A stretch of 64,000 nt of DNA from the IMG/VR virus record IMGVR_UViG_3300011008_000020. The stretch is one strand, 5' to 3'. Each line of letters starts with the position of its first letter. The first letter of the stretch is position 1. The notes beneath the pieces were generated by a model, which did no database searches, was not told the origin of the DNA, and saw only the letters and a list, made by a program, of their open reading frames with translations. This document shows, piece after piece, positions 15,666 to 63,707 of the stretch. This DNA is from a virus. Its lineage: Duplodnaviria > Heunggongvirae > Uroviricota > Caudoviricetes. The position numbers were made by a program, and so were the translations under genes.

Positions 15666-15694
15666 TATAATAGCATATTTATTACATTTTGTCA
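15666..15694 (-). promoter_or_regulatory. sigma-A-type promoter (TTGACA-17-TATTAT)
   Basis: Read directly from the minus strand; context GGTATTGACAAAA is shared with the cro promoter. Confidence 0.5.
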
Positions 15695-15733
15695 ATACCT
15701 AAAATGCAAAAAAACAAGAAAAATAAAATGGCC

Positions 15734-16863: not shown

Positions 16864-16906
16864 GGCGTTTGCCTCCTCATTCGTCGTTGTCCCTTGCTGT
16901 GCTGCT

Positions 16907-16935
16907 ATATTAAGGAATGTAGTTGCTTTTTGCAA
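16907..16935 (-). promoter_or_regulatory. sigma-A-type promoter (TTGCAA-17-TAATAT) with AACTACATT operator-like motif
   Basis: Spacer contains GCAACTACATTCC, similar to the CAAATGTAG repeats of the cro/cI region. Confidence 0.45.
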
Positions 16936-16967
16936 GGGTTTAGAATGTAATCTTTTTATAATCAGGT

Positions 16968-17031: not shown

Positions 17032-17304
17032 TTACAGCAGCGAATCCTTGAGGCCCTTGCCCGCCTTGAAGTGCGGCACCTTGTGGGAAGCCACATGCAC
17101 GGTCTCGCCAGTCTGCGGGTTCTTGCAATCCCGCGCCTCGCGCTGCTTCGCCTCGAAGGTTCCGAAGCCGGTCAGCGTCAGCTTGTCGCCGTTGCGCATG
17201 ACCGCGCCCACCTCGGTGCAGAAGGCGTGGAGCGCCATCTGAGCCTGCTTCTTGGTGATTCCTGCCGCACCTGCCATCTTGGTTACGAGTTCTTCCTTCT
17301 TCAT
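17032..17304 (-). CDS. hup: HU-family DNA-binding protein
   Basis: 90 aa; MKKEELV...GFGTFEAKQREAR...NPQTGE matches the HU/IHF signature. Confidence 0.85.
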   Translation of the reverse strand: MKKEELVTKMAGAAGITKKQAQMALHAFCTEVGAVMRNGDKLTLTGFGTFEAKQREARDCKNPQTGETVHVASHKVPHFKAGKGLKDSLL

Positions 17305-17306
17305 GT

Positions 17307-17957
17307 TCAGTTACCTCCTGTCAAGTCTTTTATTGCATCAATGCCGAAGATCAGTGCGGTGATGCTTTCGATGGCCGCATCAAGGTCTTTTTCGGCAGTG
17401 CGCTTATGTATGTGCTCCCGGTCAGCGATGTCCGACATGGAGACTTGAGGTTCGTCGAGGTATCGAGCCTTCATAACCCGGTACTGGCGCTTGATGCTTT
17501 CCATCGGTGAGCGGTCGCAGAAGGCCGCGTAGATTTCCAGCATACGGTCGAGGTGTTGCAGAATGATCATGGTGCGGGTTGCGCTCTTGCAGATGGATTC
17601 GATGTAGATTTCGTCGGACGGCGCAGAGTTGTTCAGTAGCTTCCAGATGTCGCCGGGCTTCAATTCGTCGATGGCCCGCTCCTCGTCCAGCGTGAAGATC
17701 GCGTTGGTGAAGTGCTCCTTCAACATGCGGTAGTTCTTGAGAAGCAGCCGCGTGTTGTGGAGGCGCTTGTCTATGTTCTTGGCGCTCTCGCGCTTCCTGA
17801 TCGCCGTCTGTTCCTTCTTGAGGGCTTCCGCGCCTTTCCGGGCCGCGTCGCGCACGATGGAACCTTGATCGCCAGCCAAAACGGCGTATGCTGCCTGCGC
17901 CCCTGTGTTGGCGGCAAGCTGTATGAGCTGTTCAAGCTGCTGCATCGACAATTCCAT
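17307..17957 (-). CDS. sigma-70 region-4-like / ArpU-RinA-like transcriptional regulator (putative late activator)
   Basis: C-terminal SMSDIADREHIHKRTAEKDLDAAIESI is HTH/sigma region-4-like; position upstream of the late region. Confidence 0.5.
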   Translation of the reverse strand: MELSMQQLEQLIQLAANTGAQAAYAVLAGDQGSIVRDAARKGAEALKKEQTAIRKRESAKNIDKRLHNTRLLLKNYRMLKEHFTNAIFTLDEERAIDELKPGDIWKLLNNSAPSDEIYIESICKSATRTMIILQHLDRMLEIYAAFCDRSPMESIKRQYRVMKARYLDEPQVSMSDIADREHIHKRTAEKDLDAAIESITALIFGIDAIKDLTGGN

Positions 17958-21874: not shown

Positions 21875-21935
21875 GCGAAATTCTTGCAGAAAGGCACAAC
21901 TTGGATATGTTTCTATTGGTGTCCTTCCGTGGAAT

Positions 21936-21964
21936 ATTATAGCTTCTTTTAGTGGTATTGTCAA
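21936..21964 (-). promoter_or_regulatory. consensus sigma-A promoter TTGACA-17-TATAAT (family member 1)
   Basis: Minus strand reads TTGACAATACCACTAAAAGAAGCTATAATATTCCAC; shares flanks with four other copies. Confidence 0.65.
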
Positions 21965-22239
21965 GCGGAAGATGGCTCTATTGGTGGCTTTTTTACGGAT
22001 TTGTCAAGGTTTCCAGCCTCGAAGGAGGCGCGGAACCTTGGCAACCTGAGTTGCCATCCGGTTGCCGAAGCATAAAAACATACGGAAAGTTGTGGAAAAT
22101 ACGGAAAATTGCGCCTTTGCCAGAGTGGCCGCGCCGGTGTGCTGGTGGTGCCGGAATCCCCTGAAATCGCTGTGCAATATGCGCATAGAACGTGTAGATT
22201 ATAGAGCAATAAGCATAAAAGCAAGGGCAAATACAGGGT

Positions 22240-38372: not shown

Positions 38373-38422
38373 GGTGAAGTTCCTCCTTTGTGAGTGTTTC
38401 CAGTGGTTGCTTTCTGTGGAAT

Positions 38423-38451
38423 ATTATAGCCGCTAATGGTGTCATTGTCAA
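38423..38451 (-). promoter_or_regulatory. consensus sigma-A promoter TTGACA-17-TATAAT (family member 2)
   Basis: Minus strand reads TTGACAATGACACCATTAGCGGCTATAATATTCCAC. Confidence 0.7.
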
Positions 38452-38529
38452 GAGGGAAAATGCCTCTTTTGGAAACTATTTTCGGAATTTCCCGCTTCTT
38501 ATGGTGGTTTTTTCTTGTTGACACTCCTC

Positions 38530-48070: not shown

Positions 48071-48953
48071 TTCGGCGTCCCCCTTTCTTTCTCGCGTGTT
48101 CATCTGATGCAGCCTTGAACTCGGCGACAGAGAGCACGTTTTCCTCGACGCAGCGGTTCAGGATTGACTTCACGTAGTTGTAGACGCGCTTCCCGTTGCC
48201 GCAGGCTTCGTCTATCACATGGATTATCAGGTCATCAGGGAGACCGTCGTCCCTGAATGTGAGTAGTTCTGCTTCGTTGTTGGGTGTCATACACATAAGG
48301 TTTTCCCTTGCGTATACGATCAATCTATCTACGAACACAGGATTATCTTCTCCGTCATCTTCACCATAAGGGTTTGACGGAATGTTATAATAAACACCAG
48401 CAGGAGTAGGCGTAGCCTTTCCTTTACTTTCCTTTGTGGCATTTGCGGGCCGCATTTCGTCATTTGCGGCCTGCAAATGCGAATTTGATGGCGGCACGTA
48501 GGGATATGTGGATGATGTGACCGCGCTCAACGGCACGAGATTGATGGAACCCGTTTCTTCCGGGCGCAGAAGCCAGTATTCACGAATGGCACTCCGAACG
48601 CGGCGCTTTGCGATAGCGATGGCGTACCTTTTTTGCATACCTCTACTTGTAAGGACACCCTGTGCGAAAAGCCTTTTATCAAAAAGTCCACAACGCAAGC
48701 ATGCCTCAACGGTCGCCTTGACCGTGCCAGATCGTATGCCAGCGCCCATCCGCCTCGCTATGGCGGCGTCACTGTCATCGCTCCAAATGTAGAAGTAGCC
48801 CTCGTCTCCGTATGCCTTCTGGCAGATGTAGAAGTAAATCGAGAACCCAAGCCACCCTTGCGCATCGAGCAGCTTGTCCATTTTTCGGTCATTGTCGAAC
48901 ATGGTAACATCCCAGCCCGCGTAGTCTATGCCTTGTTTCGGCCTGCCGGACAA
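48003..48953 (-). CDS. phage replisome organizer (DnaD-like / Phage_rep_org_N)
   Basis: GWLGFSIYFYICQKAYGDEGYFYIW N-terminal domain; upstream of the DnaC-like gene. Confidence 0.65.
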   Translation of the reverse strand: MSGRPKQGIDYAGWDVTMFDNDRKMDKLLDAQGWLGFSIYFYICQKAYGDEGYFYIWSDDSDAAIARRMGAGIRSGTVKATVEACLRCGLFDKRLFAQGVLTSRGMQKRYAIAIAKRRVRSAIREYWLLRPEETGSINLVPLSAVTSSTYPYVPPSNSHLQAANDEMRPANATKESKGKATPTPAGVYYNIPSNPYGEDDGEDNPVFVDRLIVYARENLMCMTPNNEAELLTFRDDGLPDDLIIHVIDEACGNGKRVYNYVKSILNRCVEENVLSVAEFKAASDEHARKKGGRRNANAGRAGDSGPRKLFEGQTIV

Positions 48954-49040
48954 ATGGATTCACCCTCTTTCACCCCCACGCCCGTCGCCGGGCGCAGGGG
49001 AGTGTTCGTCTATGACACCGTTAGATGCCGTTTGTGGAAT

Positions 49041-49069
49041 ATTATAGCCGCTAACGGTGTCATTGTCAA
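49041..49069 (-). promoter_or_regulatory. consensus sigma-A promoter TTGACA-17-TATAAT (family member 3)
   Basis: Minus strand reads TTGACAATGACACCGTTAGCGGCTATAATATTCCAC. Confidence 0.7.
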
Positions 49070-49101
49070 TATGGTTAATGCAACTGATAGAAACTTTTTT
49101 G

Positions 49102-54568: not shown

Positions 54569-54605
54569 CCTCCTTTCTGTTTCTAATGGTGTCGTCCCGT
54601 GGAAT

Positions 54606-54634
54606 ATTATAGGCGCTGTTAGAAACTTTGTCAA
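54606..54634 (-). promoter_or_regulatory. consensus sigma-A promoter TTGACA-17-TATAAT (family member 4)
   Basis: Minus strand reads TTGACAAAGTTTCTAACAGCGCCTATAATATTCCAC. Confidence 0.65.
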
Positions 54635-54658
54635 GCCCTTTTTTGTCTCTGATCGTGT

Positions 54659-54982
54659 TTATTTTACTGCCGGGGCGCGACGCTGGCCGCGCTGGACAGA
54701 ACCAGACCGGGCGACGCGGGAAACGGAGCGCCCATACTGATGAAACTGGGTCTCAAATTCGGGGTTCAGGAAAACCAGATCATCCGGGTTCGGATTGTCG
54801 CCGCGTTCCCTTGCCTCGGCGAAGCGCTCCATGTTGACGCTCTGGATTCGGCGCTGCAGGTCACGAACGGTGTCCGCATAGTACATGCGCTCCTCCGCGA
54901 CGGCGCGGTACTTGTCCCAGATCACGAGGCGGTCGATGCCGATACCAGCGATCAGCGCGAGAATGATATACAGGGTAATCAT
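54659..54982 (-). CDS. membrane-anchored hypothetical protein
   Basis: RBS AAGGAGG then MITLYIILALIAGIGI. Confidence 0.5.
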   Translation of the reverse strand: MITLYIILALIAGIGIDRLVIWDKYRAVAEERMYYADTVRDLQRRIQSVNMERFAEARERGDNPNPDDLVFLNPEFETQFHQYGRSVSRVARSGSVQRGQRRAPAVK

Positions 54983-57612: not shown

Positions 57613-57861
57613 CTATTTGTTGACGGCCTGCCAGAGCAGGTCTTCCAGATTGTTCATGGCGCACTTGGCCTTGATCAGTTCCAAGTCCGGGATGCTGTCC
57701 AGCATGTCCTTCGTTTTCTTGACCATGTTATAGACCTCGCCAACGGTCGGCCTCGTGTGCTGGACGGCGGGTGCCGGGCGCTGCGGCTGCTTCTTCTTCG
57801 CCGCAGGCTTGCGCTTGCGCGACTTCTTCTTGAATATTCCGAACATCCTCTCGTTCTCCAT
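57613..57861 (-). CDS. basic hypothetical protein
   Basis: 82 aa; K/R-rich. Confidence 0.45.
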   Translation of the reverse strand: MENERMFGIFKKKSRKRKPAAKKKQPQRPAPAVQHTRPTVGEVYNMVKKTKDMLDSIPDLELIKAKCAMNNLEDLLWQAVNK

Positions 57862-58338
57862 TTACAGGTTGTGCTTCTCGGCGTAGATTTGCAGGGCGTC
57901 AATGACAGCCTTGAGGCTTCCCAGCTTTTTCGCCACGTTCTGGAACGCAGTAACTTCATCCGGCCTCACGCGGCCATCCGACGCGATCTGCAGCAGGGCC
58001 TTTGCCACGTCGCCCACGCCCTGCGCTTCGTTGAACAGCTTGATGGCCGTCCGCTCGAAGCACTCGTCCTGTACCGGGTTCACGCGGCCACAGCCGATAG
58101 GGCAGATCATGGCGCAGTAACTCGTCAGCAGTTCCGGCGTGTTGTAGAGCTGCGCCATGCGCCGTGCGTTGATGTTGCTCGGCAGCACCTCGTCACGTTC
58201 CCACCGCCCGATGGTCTCCGGCGAGGAGACTTCCAGCGCCTCCGCCGCACCCTGCTGGGTCGCCAGCTTCTCGTTGTAGGCCGCAGCGTTCAAACGCGCT
58301 TCTCGGAGTTGTTCTCCAAAGGTTTTTCCAACATTCAA
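57862..58338 (-). CDS. XRE-family HTH regulator with C-terminal domain
   Basis: N-terminal FGEQLREARLNAA...LATQQGAAEALEVSSPETIGRWERDEVLPS. Confidence 0.6.
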   Translation of the reverse strand: MNVGKTFGEQLREARLNAAAYNEKLATQQGAAEALEVSSPETIGRWERDEVLPSNINARRMAQLYNTPELLTSYCAMICPIGCGRVNPVQDECFERTAIKLFNEAQGVGDVAKALLQIASDGRVRPDEVTAFQNVAKKLGSLKAVIDALQIYAEKHNL

Positions 58339-58351
58339 AATCCTTCACCTC

Positions 58352-58609
58352 TCACTCGGTCTGTGCTACAATAACTTCACGGTGCTTGAATGCGTCGCGT
58401 TCAACGTCGAAGAACTCGACGGGGAATCCCAGCAGCGCGGAGAGCCGCCCGGCGACCTTCTTTGAAGGGTTGCGCTTGCCATACTCGATGTTCTGGTAAT
58501 GGTCAAGGCTGATGCCGACCGCCTGCGCCGCTTGGGTCTGGGTCATGTGCGCACCGTTTCGGAGGGCGCGAAGCCAAACCCGCTTGCTTGATTCGGTCAA
58601 TAAAATGTC
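58352..58609 (-). CDS. Cro-like XRE-family repressor (TTG start)
   Basis: RBS AAGGGGGTGA; LRALRNGAHMTQTQAAQAVGISLDHYQNIEYGKRNPS is an HTH_XRE motif. Confidence 0.65.
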   Translation of the reverse strand, partial: DILLTESSKRVWLRALRNGAHMTQTQAAQAVGISLDHYQNIEYGKRNPSKKVAGRLSALLGFPVEFFDVERDAFKHREVIVAQTE

Positions 58610-58740
58610 ACCCCCTTGTCGTTGCACTCGGCTGAAATTGACGGTATAATGGAAGTTGGGTTTTTAGCACTGATTCGCAATCTTGCGCGGTTTGCGCCGT
58701 TTGCGTGTTCCGTGGAATACCGTCAAGCTGTTATGGGGAC

Positions 58741-58769
58741 AGTATAATCCACAAATGTAGTTTTGTCAA
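58741..58769 (-). promoter_or_regulatory. cro-type promoter TTGACA-17-TATACT with CAAATGTAG operator repeats
   Basis: CAAATGTAG at 58752-58760 and 58774-58782, in the divergent region between the cro-like and cI-like genes. Confidence 0.6.
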
Positions 58770-58810
58770 TACCAAATGTAGACTTTATTTTGCTTTTTGA
58801 GGTGTTGTGC

Positions 58811-59158
58811 ATGCGACTTGGAGAAAAGGTTCTATCGTTGCTTAAAGAACGAAGGGTGCAGCAAAATGAGTTTGCAAAGGCAATCGGCGTCAGTCCAAAG
58901 ACGGTTAGTTCATGGAAAGAGGAAAACAGAAACCCTTCTTGGGATTTAATAGTCCCTATATGTAGATTTCTGGAAATGACGCCGAATGAACTACTTGAAT
59001 TTGAAGGGCGTTCTTTCGATGTCGAGGAAAGGGAAGAAGGTTTGTTGAAGCGCTATAGATGCCTTGACTTCGGCGGAAAAGCACGTGTCGATGCCTATGT
59101 AGACGGGGAGTATCAAAAAGCACGTTTGGAGGGGGATAGCACAAAGACAGCGACATAG
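58811..59158 (+). CDS. CI-like XRE-family repressor
   Basis: MRLGEKVLSLLKERRVQQNEFAKAIGVSPKTVSSWKEENRNPS. Confidence 0.65.
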   Translation: MRLGEKVLSLLKERRVQQNEFAKAIGVSPKTVSSWKEENRNPSWDLIVPICRFLEMTPNELLEFEGRSFDVEEREEGLLKRYRCLDFGGKARVDAYVDGEYQKARLEGDSTKTAT

Positions 59159-59214
59159 AGAACCGATATTCGGCAACGTATACCCCATTCGACCACGTTA
59201 AGGAGGAAGCTACA

Positions 59215-60174
59215 ATGAAAAAAGTCATTACAATCGTCATTACTTTGGCTCTGCTGATTTGCTGCGCAACACAGGCTGTTGCGGAGGATGCGTATGTAGG
59301 CGCTACCCCTTATGACTTCACCGGGGAATGTCCAGAACAGGTGTTGGAGTTTTGCGCAGAGGGCGGTTCTGCTCTCTATGAGTGGCTTGGTGTTCGCACT
59401 GTCACCTACATCGTTCCTTCCTGTGAGGGACTGGCTGCGGAAAGCTATGCGGCCATCATCAGCGGCATCACCGAGCGCTTGGTCGGAGAGACAGAGAAGG
59501 AAATGATCATTCTTGCCGACGCAGAGTTGAACCAGATTTATGTGCTGCGCGGGGAAGAATATGCGCGGTACTTCACGGAGGAAGATGCGGAGAAGTGCAT
59601 CGTTGCATCGCACGTTGAGCAGCGGAACAACATTTACGATAGCGTTACCGCGTTCTACAAGGCGATGGGCCAAGTGCTCGTTGAAAAGGAGAACGAGATC
59701 GAAGCAGCGCGAGCTTCGGAGGCTGCGGAGGAGGCGAACGACCCGTTCTATGCGGAGTTGTCCGCACAGCCGGTCTATATAAGAAGCGCCAGCCTGATCG
59801 TCCAGTCGGATGAGTACAAATCACTCTATCCAGATCTGCTTCAAGCGACCATCGTCAACAATTCCGAGGACGATGTGAAGGATGTGGTGGTTGCGTTTAT
59901 GGCATGGGACGCCAACAACCTGCCCGTGCTGATTAAGACGCAGTTCGATTTCAGCGCTGGTGCATACGTCAAGCAAGGAAACTACACCGGCGTGAACATG
60001 GTGCCGGGCAGCACGTATGGCGATAACTTCGGCTTTAAGCTGGACGAATCCGTGAAGGGCGTCGCCACAGTCAAGGCCATCGTGGTATCATACGAGACTT
60101 TCGATGGGGAAACGTGGACAAATCCACTGTATGACCAATATGTAGGACAATATGAAGGGAAGAAATTGCAGTAA
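59215..60174 (+). CDS. secreted/lipoprotein moron (DUF4352/DUF5067-like beta-sandwich C-terminus)
   Basis: Signal peptide MKKVITIVITLALLICCATQAVA; RBS AAGGAGG. Confidence 0.6.
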   Translation: MKKVITIVITLALLICCATQAVAEDAYVGATPYDFTGECPEQVLEFCAEGGSALYEWLGVRTVTYIVPSCEGLAAESYAAIISGITERLVGETEKEMIILADAELNQIYVLRGEEYARYFTEEDAEKCIVASHVEQRNNIYDSVTAFYKAMGQVLVEKENEIEAARASEAAEEANDPFYAELSAQPVYIRSASLIVQSDEYKSLYPDLLQATIVNNSEDDVKDVVVAFMAWDANNLPVLIKTQFDFSAGAYVKQGNYTGVNMVPGSTYGDNFGFKLDESVKGVATVKAIVVSYETFDGETWTNPLYDQYVGQYEGKKLQ

Positions 60175-60182
60175 ACTTCCCG

Positions 60183-60440
60183 TCAGCGTTCGGCCAGCGT
60201 TTTCCTGCCGAACTCCCGGATGTAGGGGTTGCCGGGCACTCTCGGCTCCTCGGTGCTTTCAAAGAGGCTGTCCTCCGTTTCGTGCAGCGCCATCTTGATC
60301 GCCAGCACGATTCGGTAGGACGGGTTCTTGGCGCCGCACTCGATTTGCGAGTAGTAGCTGCGAGACACTCCCAGTGTGAGCGCGATGTCGCTCTGCGTCA
60401 AACCGGCGCGGCGTCGCGCATCCCTCAATTTGGTTCTCAT
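60183..60440 (-). CDS. XRE-family HTH regulator
   Basis: RBS GGGAGGTGATACA then MRTKLRDARRRAGLTQSDIALTLGVSRSYYSQIECGAKNPS. Confidence 0.65.
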   Translation of the reverse strand: MRTKLRDARRRAGLTQSDIALTLGVSRSYYSQIECGAKNPSYRIVLAIKMALHETEDSLFESTEEPRVPGNPYIREFGRKTLAER

Positions 60441-60480
60441 TGTATCACCTCCCGCTTCATATAGAAGCATTTTTTAGACT

Positions 60481-60510
60481 ATTATAGACGCAGATGGTGT
60501 CATCTGTCAA
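60481..60510 (-). promoter_or_regulatory. consensus sigma-A promoter TTGACA-18-TATAAT (family member 5) with palindromic operator
   Basis: Minus strand reads TTGACAGATGACACCATCTGCGTCTATAAT; palindrome CAGATGGTGTCATCTG at 60491-60506. Confidence 0.65.
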
Positions 60511-60529
60511 CAGGAAGGAGTTTTGCATT

Positions 60530-60955
60530 ATGTCAATTTTCGGTGAGAGGCTGTATGAGGCCCGCAGGCGGCAGCGGATTACTCAAGGCGATCTGGCAGA
60601 TCGCGCAGGCGTCACCCGGTCGGCCATCGGTGGGTATGAGAAGATGGGAAAGGATGCCAGCTATGAAGTATTGGTGAAGATCGCGCAGGCACTCGGCGTG
60701 ACGACTGACTACCTGCTCGGCATGGACGACAATGCTGGCTGGCATAAGCGCACCGGCGTCGCCGAGAAGTTCTACGATCTTGAGCTTTACTATGACCGTG
60801 CGCCAGACGAGCAGAAAGCCACCATAGACAGCCTGCTCGTGGAGGTGGACAAGTTGCTCGCCTTCTTCCTCGCGTCGCCGGACACGGCGCGGCTGGGCCA
60901 TCTGCGTGACCTCCTCGCGGACGCCCGCAGGCTCATGGGTGATGGCAATGAGTGA
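60530..60955 (+). CDS. XRE-family HTH regulator with C-terminal domain
   Basis: RBS GGAAGGAG then MSIFGERLYEARRRQRITQGDLADRAGVTRSAIGGYE. Confidence 0.65.
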   Translation: MSIFGERLYEARRRQRITQGDLADRAGVTRSAIGGYEKMGKDASYEVLVKIAQALGVTTDYLLGMDDNAGWHKRTGVAEKFYDLELYYDRAPDEQKATIDSLLVEVDKLLAFFLASPDTARLGHLRDLLADARRLMGDGNE

Positions 60956-62138
60956 GAACAAGCCGTTCGTCGTCTACGGCGACTATGGGCGCGACAGCGA
61001 GGGCAAGCGCATCCGAAAGAAGTTCACCGGCGTGGACGAGGTGGAGGCCCGGTTGAAGAAGCGGGAGTATGAGAAGGAACGCGCCATTGGCCTGCACAAG
61101 TACGCCGACACCATGACGGTGCGCCAGTGGACGGACATCTGGATGAACGCCTACCGCTCCGAGATCAAGGGCACGAACAAGGTCTCCTATGACACATACG
61201 TCGGGCGGCTGAACGCAGAGATCGGCCACATGAAGATCAAGGATGTGCAGAACATCCACCTGTACCGATGCTTGTTGACCATGAAAGGAATGTCGAAGTC
61301 GTCCCTCACAAAGTACCGCATGGTGATTCAGCAGGTATTCCGAAAGGCCCGGCAGAACAAGGTGCTCCCGGACGACCCAAGTGAAGACCTCGAACTGCCG
61401 AACGGCACCAGCGGGACGCACCGGGCGCTTGAGAAGTGGGAGATCGACCTGATCTTCGAGAATTGGCAGGTCTATAACAGCGGCCTATGGGTGATGATTA
61501 TGCTGCTGGCCGGGCTTCGGCGCGGCGAGCTGGTGGCCCTCGACTGGGACTACGTGGACATGAAGGAGCGCAACATCGTCGTCGAGCGTGCCGCCGAGAT
61601 CGTGACGAATCAGGCCGTCATCAAGGATTCCGCCAAGACAGAGGCCGGGACGAGGGCGCTGCCGATCTGCGACAAGCTGTTCGATGCGCTGTCCACCGTG
61701 CCGGAGGCGGAGCGCAAGGGGCCGGTGTGCCACAGCAAGGGCGGCGTGCGCCTGACGCAATCCTCATATTCGTGGGGGATGCGCACCTTCAACCAAGCGA
61801 TGGAGCGGATTCTGAACGGCGAGCCGCCAATCCAGCAGGGACGCCGGAAGGATTGCGAGGACAAGAAGAAGGGCCAGAAGGAAAAGGAGGCGCAGGAGCG
61901 CAAGAGGTTTTCCATCCGTGGACACGATCTGCGGTTCACCTACGCGACCGCGCTCTACGACGCGGGGGTCGATGTCAAATCTGCCATGTACTACCTCGGC
62001 CACAGCGACATCCGCATGACAATGAGCCTATACACTCAGCTTTCAAAGGAACGCGAGAACCTGTCCCGCGCACAGGCGATCACCTTCCTCGACAACTGGC
62101 TGAAACCCAAGAACGACGACGAAAAAGACGAAGATTGA
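60948..62138 (+). CDS. int: tyrosine-type site-specific integrase
   Basis: Catalytic residues R (LRRGELVALDW), H-x-x-R (HDLRFTYA) and Y (SLYTQL); overlaps the upstream gene's stop. Confidence 0.9.
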   Translation: MSENKPFVVYGDYGRDSEGKRIRKKFTGVDEVEARLKKREYEKERAIGLHKYADTMTVRQWTDIWMNAYRSEIKGTNKVSYDTYVGRLNAEIGHMKIKDVQNIHLYRCLLTMKGMSKSSLTKYRMVIQQVFRKARQNKVLPDDPSEDLELPNGTSGTHRALEKWEIDLIFENWQVYNSGLWVMIMLLAGLRRGELVALDWDYVDMKERNIVVERAAEIVTNQAVIKDSAKTEAGTRALPICDKLFDALSTVPEAERKGPVCHSKGGVRLTQSSYSWGMRTFNQAMERILNGEPPIQQGRRKDCEDKKKGQKEKEAQERKRFSIRGHDLRFTYATALYDAGVDVKSAMYYLGHSDIRMTMSLYTQLSKERENLSRAQAITFLDNWLKPKNDDEKDED

Positions 62139-62169: not shown

Positions 62170-62202
62170 TGTAAAAATCCACTATTGGTGTCAATTTTCA
62201 TC

Positions 62203-62231
62203 TTGACAATGTTGCCATTAGTTGCTATAAT
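62203..62231 (+). promoter_or_regulatory. consensus sigma-A promoter TTGACA-17-TATAAT (plus-strand family member)
   Basis: CTTGACAATGTTGCCATTAGTTGCTATAATGG; TGGTGTCAAT motif at 62187-62196. Confidence 0.65.
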
Positions 62232-62264
62232 GGATTTGAAAATGACGCGAAGGGAGACAATCAC

Positions 62265-62777
62265 ATGAGCGCAGGCGACACGCGGCAGCAGATTCGAGCC
62301 ATGACGCTTGTCGCCCGGCAAGTACTCGGAGACGGCTTCGGCTATTACCTCACCCAGCGGCCACCCGCGCCCGGAGCGCATCCGAATGACGCGCACGCCG
62401 TCGTCTCGTTGGACGCGAAGATGTGGCATGACGGAATCTGTCAGGAGATTTGGGGCTGGGTTTGCTACCGGCGACAGCTCACCAACGCGGAGGTCGAAGA
62501 ATACGAGCTGCTCCCGGACGAGGACAACCCCGTGAGGTATCAACAATATGGCATCGTGCTGTATGAGCGTGTGAAGGACGCGGACGGGCGCTCAAGGATG
62601 CGGAAGACGCCGGTGACGGAAGGCGGCAGCAGAGGCGAGCGGTTCATCACCAGCTACAAGGGCAAGGCCTTCGCATTGATCGACTTCCTGAACAAGAAGG
62701 CGGGGGCGAAGCTGAATCTAAAGGTCGTCAAGCTGCCGCAGAATGGAACAACGGACGCAGCACCGACACGACAATGA
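62265..62777 (+). CDS. hypothetical protein (moron between int and the element boundary)
   Basis: RBS GAAGGGAGAC then MSAGDTRQQ; 170 aa. Confidence 0.55.
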   Translation: MSAGDTRQQIRAMTLVARQVLGDGFGYYLTQRPPAPGAHPNDAHAVVSLDAKMWHDGICQEIWGWVCYRRQLTNAEVEEYELLPDEDNPVRYQQYGIVLYERVKDADGRSRMRKTPVTEGGSRGERFITSYKGKAFALIDFLNKKAGAKLNLKVVKLPQNGTTDAAPTRQ

Positions 62778-63625: not shown

Positions 63626-63707
63626 GGGAATGTAGCGTAATTTGGTAACGCACACAGGCGGTGCACCTAACCTGCGGTTGTCGGTTCGAATCCGAACATT
63701 CCCACCA
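63626..63707 (+). other. tRNA-like element 2 (7-bp acceptor, D-arm, T-arm GGTTCGAATCC, ACCA; no canonical anticodon arm)
   Basis: GGGAATG/CATTCCC acceptor; D-stem GCGT/ACGC; variable-arm-like AACC-tgc-GGTT. Confidence 0.35.

Follow-up and report, generated by a model that had tools for sequence, protein, structure and literature searches.

Probable paired operators at the early promoter, and a candidate third operator within the repressor gene, of a prophage immunity switch

Gene layout of the switch and its repressor

The region at positions 58610–58810 of the window (the whole stretch of DNA analysed, 64,000 nucleotides) is the immunity (lysis–lysogeny) switch of a temperate prophage from an uncultured gut or rumen Firmicute. 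An earlier note, made from the letters alone, had described a divergent Cro/CI region, and this description is borne out for a repressor and a cro-like gene. The prophage immunity setting follows from an HTH-containing early operon, a divergent gene resembling P22 c2, and an integrase and a tRNA-His to the right, as laid out below.

57862–58338, minus strand: second HTH protein of the early operon (phrog_6499)
58352–58600, minus strand: cro-like first gene of the early operon, 82 aa (Pfam HTH_3, E 2.6e-12)
58811–59158, plus strand: immunity repressor, 115 aa (Pfam HTH_26/HTH_3)
60906–62138: integrase, right of the switch
63626–63707: tRNA-His, right of the integrase

The cro-like gene likely starts at the TTG at 58600, which is preceded by the RBS AAGGGGGTG, both features being kept in the related loci L001, L002 and L014; a longer reading frame starting with GTG at 58627 is less likely. 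The minus-strand operon further holds a DUF4942 methylase gene, an SbcCD-like gene and replication-initiator/DnaC-like genes. On the other side, a DUF5780 protein (59215–60174) lies directly downstream of the repressor and carries an N-terminal sequence that, judged by eye, resembles a signal peptide or lipoprotein. The same gene order is present in the distant relative L014, and the protein may be one that lysogens express at the surface or for superinfection exclusion.

A second divergent HTH pair, 60183–60470 (minus strand) and 60494–60955 (plus strand), adjoins the integrase. The promoter of the 60183–60470 gene, TTGACA-18-TATAAT (60481–60510, minus strand), holds in its spacer the perfect 16-bp palindrome CAGATGGTGTCATCTG (60491–60506), and the related words AATGACACCATT and AATGACACCGTT occur in the spacers of promoters at 38.4 and 49.0 kb, suggesting that a second regulatory circuit may operate in this prophage.

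The repressor scores 42.2 bits against PF13443 (cut-off 22) and 30.6 bits against PF01381 (cut-off 23), which makes it an XRE/Cro-C1-type HTH protein, and its best sequence match in the PDB is P22 c2 (E 1.8e-4). Its AlphaFold model consists of an N-terminal five-helix HTH domain (about residues 1–65) followed by a C-terminal two-helix domain (about residues 71–108), with fold matches to P22 c2, 434 Cro, SinR (full-length, 1b0n_A, among the best) and ClgR. Confidence in the C-terminal domain is low (pLDDT about 55–60), so oligomerisation of the repressor is a guess. A Pfam search with the C-terminal 52 aa found no family at E ≤ 1, and a search of the repressor for Peptidase_S24 gave no match at E ≤ 0.01; induction probably proceeds without RecA-stimulated self-cleavage.

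The C-terminal domain, ERExxLLxxYRxLDxxGKAxV...RLEGDSxKTA (residues 64–115, 59000–59155), is common to repressors whose N-terminal HTH differs. Within it, the LEGD codons TTG GAG GGG GAT (59126–59137) are identical or nearly so in seven of seven type-A genes, which hints at a constraint acting on the DNA itself or at a boundary of recombination.

The comparison loci are drawn from metagenomes and IMG/VR; those that are independent are few, with about seven specificities, mostly on short metagenomic contigs. DNA similarity searches of 57800–60500 against 50,697 phage records gave no match, and protein searches returned only distant matches in gut-Clostridia phages and no close cultured phage. 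A scan of genome and metagenome collections with the leader 20-mer yielded L009 as its only useful locus, most of its matches (Poribacteria, L011, L013) being an unrelated adenylate-kinase motif. A search of the window for att repeats of at least 13 nt that would mark the prophage ends found none.

Promoters and probable operators of the switch region

The promoters, boxes and repeats of the switch region are arranged as follows.

58622–58650, plus strand: candidate repressor promoter P_far, TTGCAC-17-TATAAT, facing P_left
58638–58647, plus strand: left arm TTGACGGTAT of a 10-bp inverted repeat
58710–58727, minus strand: conserved leader motif GGTATTCCACGG (58710–58721) with the right arm ATACCGTCAA of the inverted repeat (58717–58726)
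58741–58769, minus strand: early (lytic-side) promoter P_left, −35 TTGACA at 58769–58764, spacer 17, −10 TATACT at 58746–58741
58750–59030: swapped immunity cassette, holding O1, O2 and the DNA-binding-domain coding sequence including O3, delimited by the identity profile against L001
58752–58764, plus strand: probable operator O1, 9-mer CAAATGTAG at 58752–58760 and 12-mer AAATGTAGTTTT at 58753–58764, in the P_left spacer and abutting the −35
58763–58791, plus strand: weak proximal promoter-like site for the repressor gene, TTGTCA-17-TATTTT, score 9/12
58773–58785, plus strand: probable operator O2, 9-mer CAAATGTAG at 58773–58781 and 12-mer AAATGTAGACTT at 58774–58785, just upstream of the −35
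58958–58969, plus strand: candidate auxiliary operator O3, ATATGTAGATTT, at codons Ile50-Cys-Arg-Phe53 (helix 4), in the same orientation as O1 and O2

The early promoter TTGACA-17-TATACT, which had been reported to be overlapped by repeats, is confirmed on the minus strand with a score of 11/12, close to consensus, at the head of the long minus-strand early operon; TTGACA-17-TATACT or TATAAT is found in nine of nine locus types. The two reported copies of CAAATGTAG are likewise present, the first exactly at 58752–58760 and the second one position lower than given, at 58773–58781 instead of 58774–58782. They are 21 bp apart start to start and flank the −35, the first within the spacer of P_left and the second directly upstream of the hexamer. 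Alignment of twelve boxes extends the word to a 12-bp site, A-W-W-T-G-Y-R-G-A-T-T-T, that is symmetric at five of six position pairs, and CAAATGTAG is the best-conserved part of this site, AAATGTAG(W)(Y)TT. What had been called direct repeats are thus an imperfect palindrome present twice in one orientation, as expected if an HTH dimer occupies each site, and since 21 bp corresponds to two helical turns, O1 and O2 lie on one face of the DNA. As an observation apart, the 13-mer TTTTGTCAATACC at 15687–15699 repeats the O1–O2 interval (the −35 plus flanking letters); the AT-rich intergenic region around it also holds a minus-strand TTGACA...TATTATAG promoter-like site.

By itself the CAAATGTAG repeat is weakly non-random, and the loci of relatives carry the case. 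In L009 (repressor about 85% identical), eight substitutions fall around the two boxes, the −35 and the −10, all of which are unchanged, and five further locus types with repressors 56–62% identical hold two boxes in register about the −35 at 21-bp spacing. The O1 and O2 positions are kept in the six type-A loci with a 12-mer consensus of AWWTGYRG(A)TTT; the box words of L016/17, L014/15, L018/23/24 and L019 include TAAATGCGG/CAAATGTGG, TATTTGCAG/CAAATGCGG and CATATGCAG, while TTGACA is invariant. Three heteroimmune types carry other words at wider spacing: CTAAATTTAG and ATAAATATAG, 33 bp apart, in L001/L020/L021; two copies of CTAACATCTG, 32 bp apart, in L002; and CGCATATGCG and CGCAAATGCG, 33 bp apart, in L026/27. 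As in the window, all three have a box on each side of the −35, one in the P_left spacer and one upstream.

The heteroimmune loci keep the cro-like gene, a leader of roughly 115 nt and the C-terminal 45 residues of the repressor, and differ in the N-terminal HTH. The cro-like protein is 85–87% identical in these loci (measured in L001 and L002). Relative to the type-B repressor, the N-terminal domain is 17–18% identical and the C-terminal domain 81–84%, whereas same-family relatives show the reverse pattern, with 60–70% in the N-terminal and 41–50% in the C-terminal domain. DNA identity to L001 follows the same partition, at 80–100% over 58340–58750, about 45–55% over 58760–59030 and 83–93% over 59060–59150. 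The best explanation of this profile is that immunity specificity resides in the exchanged cassette, comprising O1, O2, the N-terminal domain and O3.

This conservation and covariation of the boxes in relatives supports the operator role that had been claimed for the repeats at the cro-type promoter. O1 and O2 are likely the operators of the 115-aa repressor at the early promoter, and the boxes most likely belong to this repressor and not to the cro-like protein. The textbook alternative, a lambda-like switch in which repressor and cro-like protein share the CAAATGTAG operators with differing preferences, is suggested by the divergent arrangement of the two genes, both of which encode XRE-type HTH proteins. 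In lambdoid immunity swaps, however, cro travels together with the operators, unlike here: the cro-like protein and the leader are kept in L001, L002 and L021 despite wholly different box words and spacing. Because the boxes travel with the N-terminal HTH of the repressor instead of the cro-like protein, a lambda-style shared-operator switch is highly unlikely. Still less credible is that the repeat arose by chance or as a structural feature of an AT-rich promoter region (UP-element-like, for example) with no specific protein partner. Shuffling the region does produce an exact 9-mer repeat in 2–14% of cases, according to the model used, and in 2–5% of shuffles of the 210-bp intergenic region the repeat is direct and within 40 bp (p about 0.02–0.05). 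The boxes, however, keep their positions and vary together with the repressor N-terminal domain across about seven specificities, each of which has its own repeated word and a third copy of it in its own repressor gene.

In the window, 184 bp separate that third copy, O3, from O2 and 205 bp from O1. Compared with the family pattern AWWTGYRGWYTT O3 has no mismatch, and compared with the pattern of the window itself, AAATGTAGWYTT, it has one. It is present in all six type-A loci at 184–189 bp from O2, again with no mismatch to the family consensus; the flank CCCTAT is common to it and the O1 of the same locus in L014, L018 and L019. Types B, C and C' hold their own operator word, with one or two mismatches, within their own repressor gene: CATATGTTAG at 180 bp from O2 in L002, CGCATTTGTG at 181 bp in L026, and CTATATTTAG at 237 bp in L001. 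In types A, C and C' the intragenic site falls at homologous codons around a conserved Ile-Cys. As O3 lies within the conserved protein motif PICRF, part of its conservation is due to coding. At the DNA level, seven of seven genes use AGA for Arg52 and TTT for Phe53, whereas codon choice differs at other invariant Arg, Phe and Val residues, and synonymous variation inside O3 is confined to positions that are also variable among the operators. The O2–O3 distances (184–189 bp) are not consistently in helical phase. On this evidence O3 is, somewhat more likely than not, an auxiliary operator. New in this analysis is that the repressor gene of each immunity type holds that type's own operator word for a third time.

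Transcription of the repressor gene may start at P_far, convergently with P_left, a proposal about as likely as not. The TATAAT of P_far is invariant, and a TTGnnn stands at a constant 17-nt spacing, across a variable spacer, in eight of nine locus types, L016 having an extended −10 instead; the predicted P_far and P_left transcripts would overlap by about 78 nt. The alternatives for the repressor gene are the weak proximal site and a −10 that overlaps the P_left −10. The proximal site TTGTCA-17-TATTTT is doubtful, as it is not conserved in L009, L016, L014, L018, L019 and L026.

Between the facing promoters lies the element that had been described as a collapsed copy of a promoter flank, GTGGAATACCGTCAAG. 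It is a real and conserved motif, located at 58712–58727 and not at 58710–58725. The GTATTCC of the leader motif is invariant in eight aligned loci and present in all switch-region loci. The arms of the inverted repeat are 69 nt apart and 100% complementary; the left arm overlaps the P_far spacer and −10, and the repeat encloses most of the early leader. The arms co-vary among loci (91% of cells paired, four pairs with compensatory changes, G–U pairs in the sense transcript), with weaker complementarity in L019 and L026. The repeat could be an RNA stem or a pair of protein sites. Predicted folding of the leader and of the antisense transcript is no better than that of shuffles, and an Rfam search of 58300–59300 returned nothing relevant.

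Related words and promoters elsewhere in the prophage

The earlier note had also linked the operator word to a promoter near the HU gene, whose surroundings are as follows.

16906–16935, minus strand: HU-adjacent promoter TTGCAA-17-TAATAT, downstream of the HU gene
17032–17304: HU gene (PF00216), followed by a terminator
17307–17957: 216-aa protein with no Pfam family, upstream of HU

The spacer of this promoter does contain GGAATGTAGTTGC (16914–16926), which is a 7/9 match to CAAATGTAG and not the same word. It is unlikely that the repressor regulon includes this promoter through weak operator copies. Favouring such a link, the shifted 9-mer AATGTAGTT is common to O1 and the spacer in the same orientation, and a second near copy, GAATGTAATCTT (16943–16954), lies just upstream of the −35 and mimics the O1/O2 layout; such a pair arises in 0.4–0.6% of local shuffles and is one of only three in the window. 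After correction for about 10–15 promoters, however, p rises from about 0.004–0.006 to a borderline value of about 0.05–0.08, and as a 9-mer the partial match is at chance level, with 89 matches of 7/9 to CAAATGTAG in the window against 112 expected. Neither copy has the invariant first A, one being without the right-half TT and the other without the invariant G; the spacing is 28 bp against 21, and the spacer copy is displaced by 4 bp relative to O1. In the closest relative, L029, the promoter hexamers are identical and the spacer reads AGACATC for CTACATT. The proposed operator link is therefore not supported.

The repeats could equally be sites of the adjacent 216-aa protein, a homologue of which directly precedes the small terminase subunit in a distant phage. 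From this position the 216-aa protein is probably a late-gene regulator, and the TTGCAA-17-TAATAT promoter with its flanking AyTACATTC repeats (16906–16954) is probably a late-operon promoter, in which case the repeats may belong to the late regulator.

A wider reading would have scattered operator-like words, all in one orientation, act in the manner of the stoperators of mycobacteriophage L5, in which many asymmetric repressor sites are spread genome-wide in one orientation relative to transcription. Outside the switch, 12-mers with at most two mismatches do number 13 on the plus strand against one on the minus strand, with 3.5 expected. The core ATGTAG, however, is itself divided 35:3 between the strands, and 26 of 37 occurrences are the antisense of xxC-TAC-ATx (Tyr-Ile/Met) codons in minus-strand genes; moreover, heteroimmune L004 is without extra copies of its own operator in 13.4 kb. 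The near-operator excess is accordingly rejected as an artefact of codon usage (Tyr-Ile codons in minus-strand genes), and a stoperator role is barely conceivable.

A third exact copy of CAAATGTAG occurs at 48784, with a near copy 39 bp away at 48823–48831, both within the replication-initiator gene. The 11-mer CCAAATGTAGA (48783–48793) equals O2 plus flanks, the site and its near copy encode a repeated YFYI motif, and both are altered in heteroimmune L004. With about 0.2 copies of CAAATGTAG expected in the whole window, a third is not unlikely by chance, and the copies in this gene probably reflect coincidence or coding.

Four internal promoters on the minus strand, TTGACAA-N16-TATAATATTCCAC (21.9, 38.4, 49.0 and 54.6 kb), have immediately after their −10 the TATTCCACRG that also occurs in the leader motif of the switch. 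These strong, near-identical promoters head successive operons.

21921–21995, minus strand: internal promoter, TTGACAA-N16-TATAATATTCCACRG
38408–38482, minus strand: internal promoter of the same form
49026–49100, minus strand: internal promoter of the same form
54591–54665, minus strand: internal promoter of the same form

All four have a conserved A-rich sequence upstream and ACCAnTnGAAACA flanks downstream, and two of the four are confirmed as conserved in heteroimmune L004 (13.4-kb contig). A further member of the family, TTGACAATGTTGCCATTAGTTGCTATAAT, lies at 62200–62245 (plus strand), just past the integrase terminator and directed toward the open reading frame 62265–62777; from its position, the element seems to extend to the right of the integrase, towards the tRNA-His (63626–63707).

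Proposed mechanism and comparison with known switches

In the mechanism that these features suggest, the 115-aa repressor would bind the two 12-bp imperfect-palindrome operators bracketing the −35 of P_left and, once bound, would exclude RNA polymerase and keep the leftward early operon silent. O3, about 185–205 bp off, would probably stabilise repression by looping through the C-terminal helical domain, and it may also hold down repressor synthesis by acting as a roadblock. The repressor gene would probably be transcribed from the 58622–58650 promoter facing P_left, giving a convergent layout like that of P2 and 186. Tentatively, the comparison of loci points to an intragenic operator that co-evolved with the promoter operators through at least four specificity changes while the cro-like gene and the C-terminal domain stayed constant, in a looped convergent-promoter switch combining P2/186-like and TP901-1-like features.

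For annotation, the analysis identifies the repressor, operators and early promoter of an uncultured Firmicute prophage at the strengths given above. The loci also form a natural experiment in the evolution of immunity specificity, in which operators and DNA-binding domain move together as a unit whose boundaries fall at the promoter −10 and in the linker between the domains. If the reading of O3 is true, a coding sequence would be constrained twice over, through its protein product and through the DNA recognition of that product, and the loci would offer ready-made orthogonal repressor–operator pairs on one scaffold.

The region is ordinary in kind and unusual in operator layout. With the lambdoid CI/Cro switches (lambda, 434, P22 c2) it shares the HTH fold, a divergent immunity gene pair and adjacent operators that are probably bound cooperatively. 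Repressors of the lambda CI/LexA type end in a Peptidase_S24 domain that includes an Ala-Gly cleavage site and a Ser/Lys dyad; here, in contrast, there is no such autocleavage domain, the cro-like protein evidently does not share the operators, and two sites stand at the promoter instead of three. SinR of Bacillus subtilis resembles the repressor in joining an XRE HTH to a short helical C-terminal part, which is an oligomerisation hook in SinR and is modelled here with low confidence. SinR is not a phage repressor, however, and a search of the window for a SinI-like partner, as a reading frame encoding an antirepressor of the C-terminal domain only, found nothing above noise. Switches of the ImmR/ImmA type have an adjacent ImmA-like metalloprotease gene, whereas the neighbours of this repressor (a DUF5780 lipoprotein, HTH proteins and the integrase) show no protease domain.

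The likeness to the P2-family switches (the C repressors of P2, P2 Hy dis and W-phi) and to 186 lies in a small HTH immunity repressor and two same-orientation repeats two turns apart at the early promoter (PMC2995052, PMC1904263, PMC1904268, PMC7498355). P2-family repressors use direct repeats 2, 2.5 or 3 turns apart together with convergent promoters (PMC2995052, PMC1904263), and convergent geometry characterises both the P2 Pe/Pc and the 186 pR/pL switches (PMC1904263, PMC7498355). Here too, O1 and O2 have the same orientation at an integral number of turns (21 bp; 32–33 bp in the heteroimmune relatives), heteroimmune relatives differ in repeat sequence, spacing (two against three turns) and position, the genes are divergent, and the counter-regulator evidently does not use the repressor's operators. 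Convergent promoters are, for this region, a prediction. The repressor nevertheless falls outside the P2 C/186 CI family, scoring 16.8 bits against PF07022, below the 22-bit cut-off, and P2 C (2xcj) is not among its 18 PDB matches at E ≤ 10. The sites also differ from those of P2 in being imperfect palindromes and not strictly asymmetric half-sites, and in including a candidate third, intragenic one.

TP901-1 CI, with three operators of which one lies inside a gene (PMC7250872), offers the parallel for that third site. The two systems are alike in joining an N-terminal HTH to a helical C-terminal region, which would serve oligomerisation here as in TP901-1, in the switch of a Gram-positive phage (PMC7250872, PMC4941734), and in placing a third cognate operator (OD, beside OR and OL, in TP901-1; the candidate O3 here) in a coding region at some distance from the promoter, here in six type-A loci and three heteroimmune types; in both, moreover, the N-terminal domain and the intergenic region travel together, apart from the C-terminal part. 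A TP901-1-type switch further has a repressor that forms higher oligomers and loops DNA, and a MOR-type antirepressor that binds CI; the model for the present repressor is of a monomer, at low confidence. The two repressors differ in length (180 aa in TP901-1 against 115 aa here). They differ further in what moves and where the distal operator sits: in TP901-1 it lies in mor, the cro-analogue, which travels with the N-terminal domain, whereas here it falls in the part of the repressor gene that codes for the DNA-binding domain, and the swapped cassette leaves out the cro-like gene.
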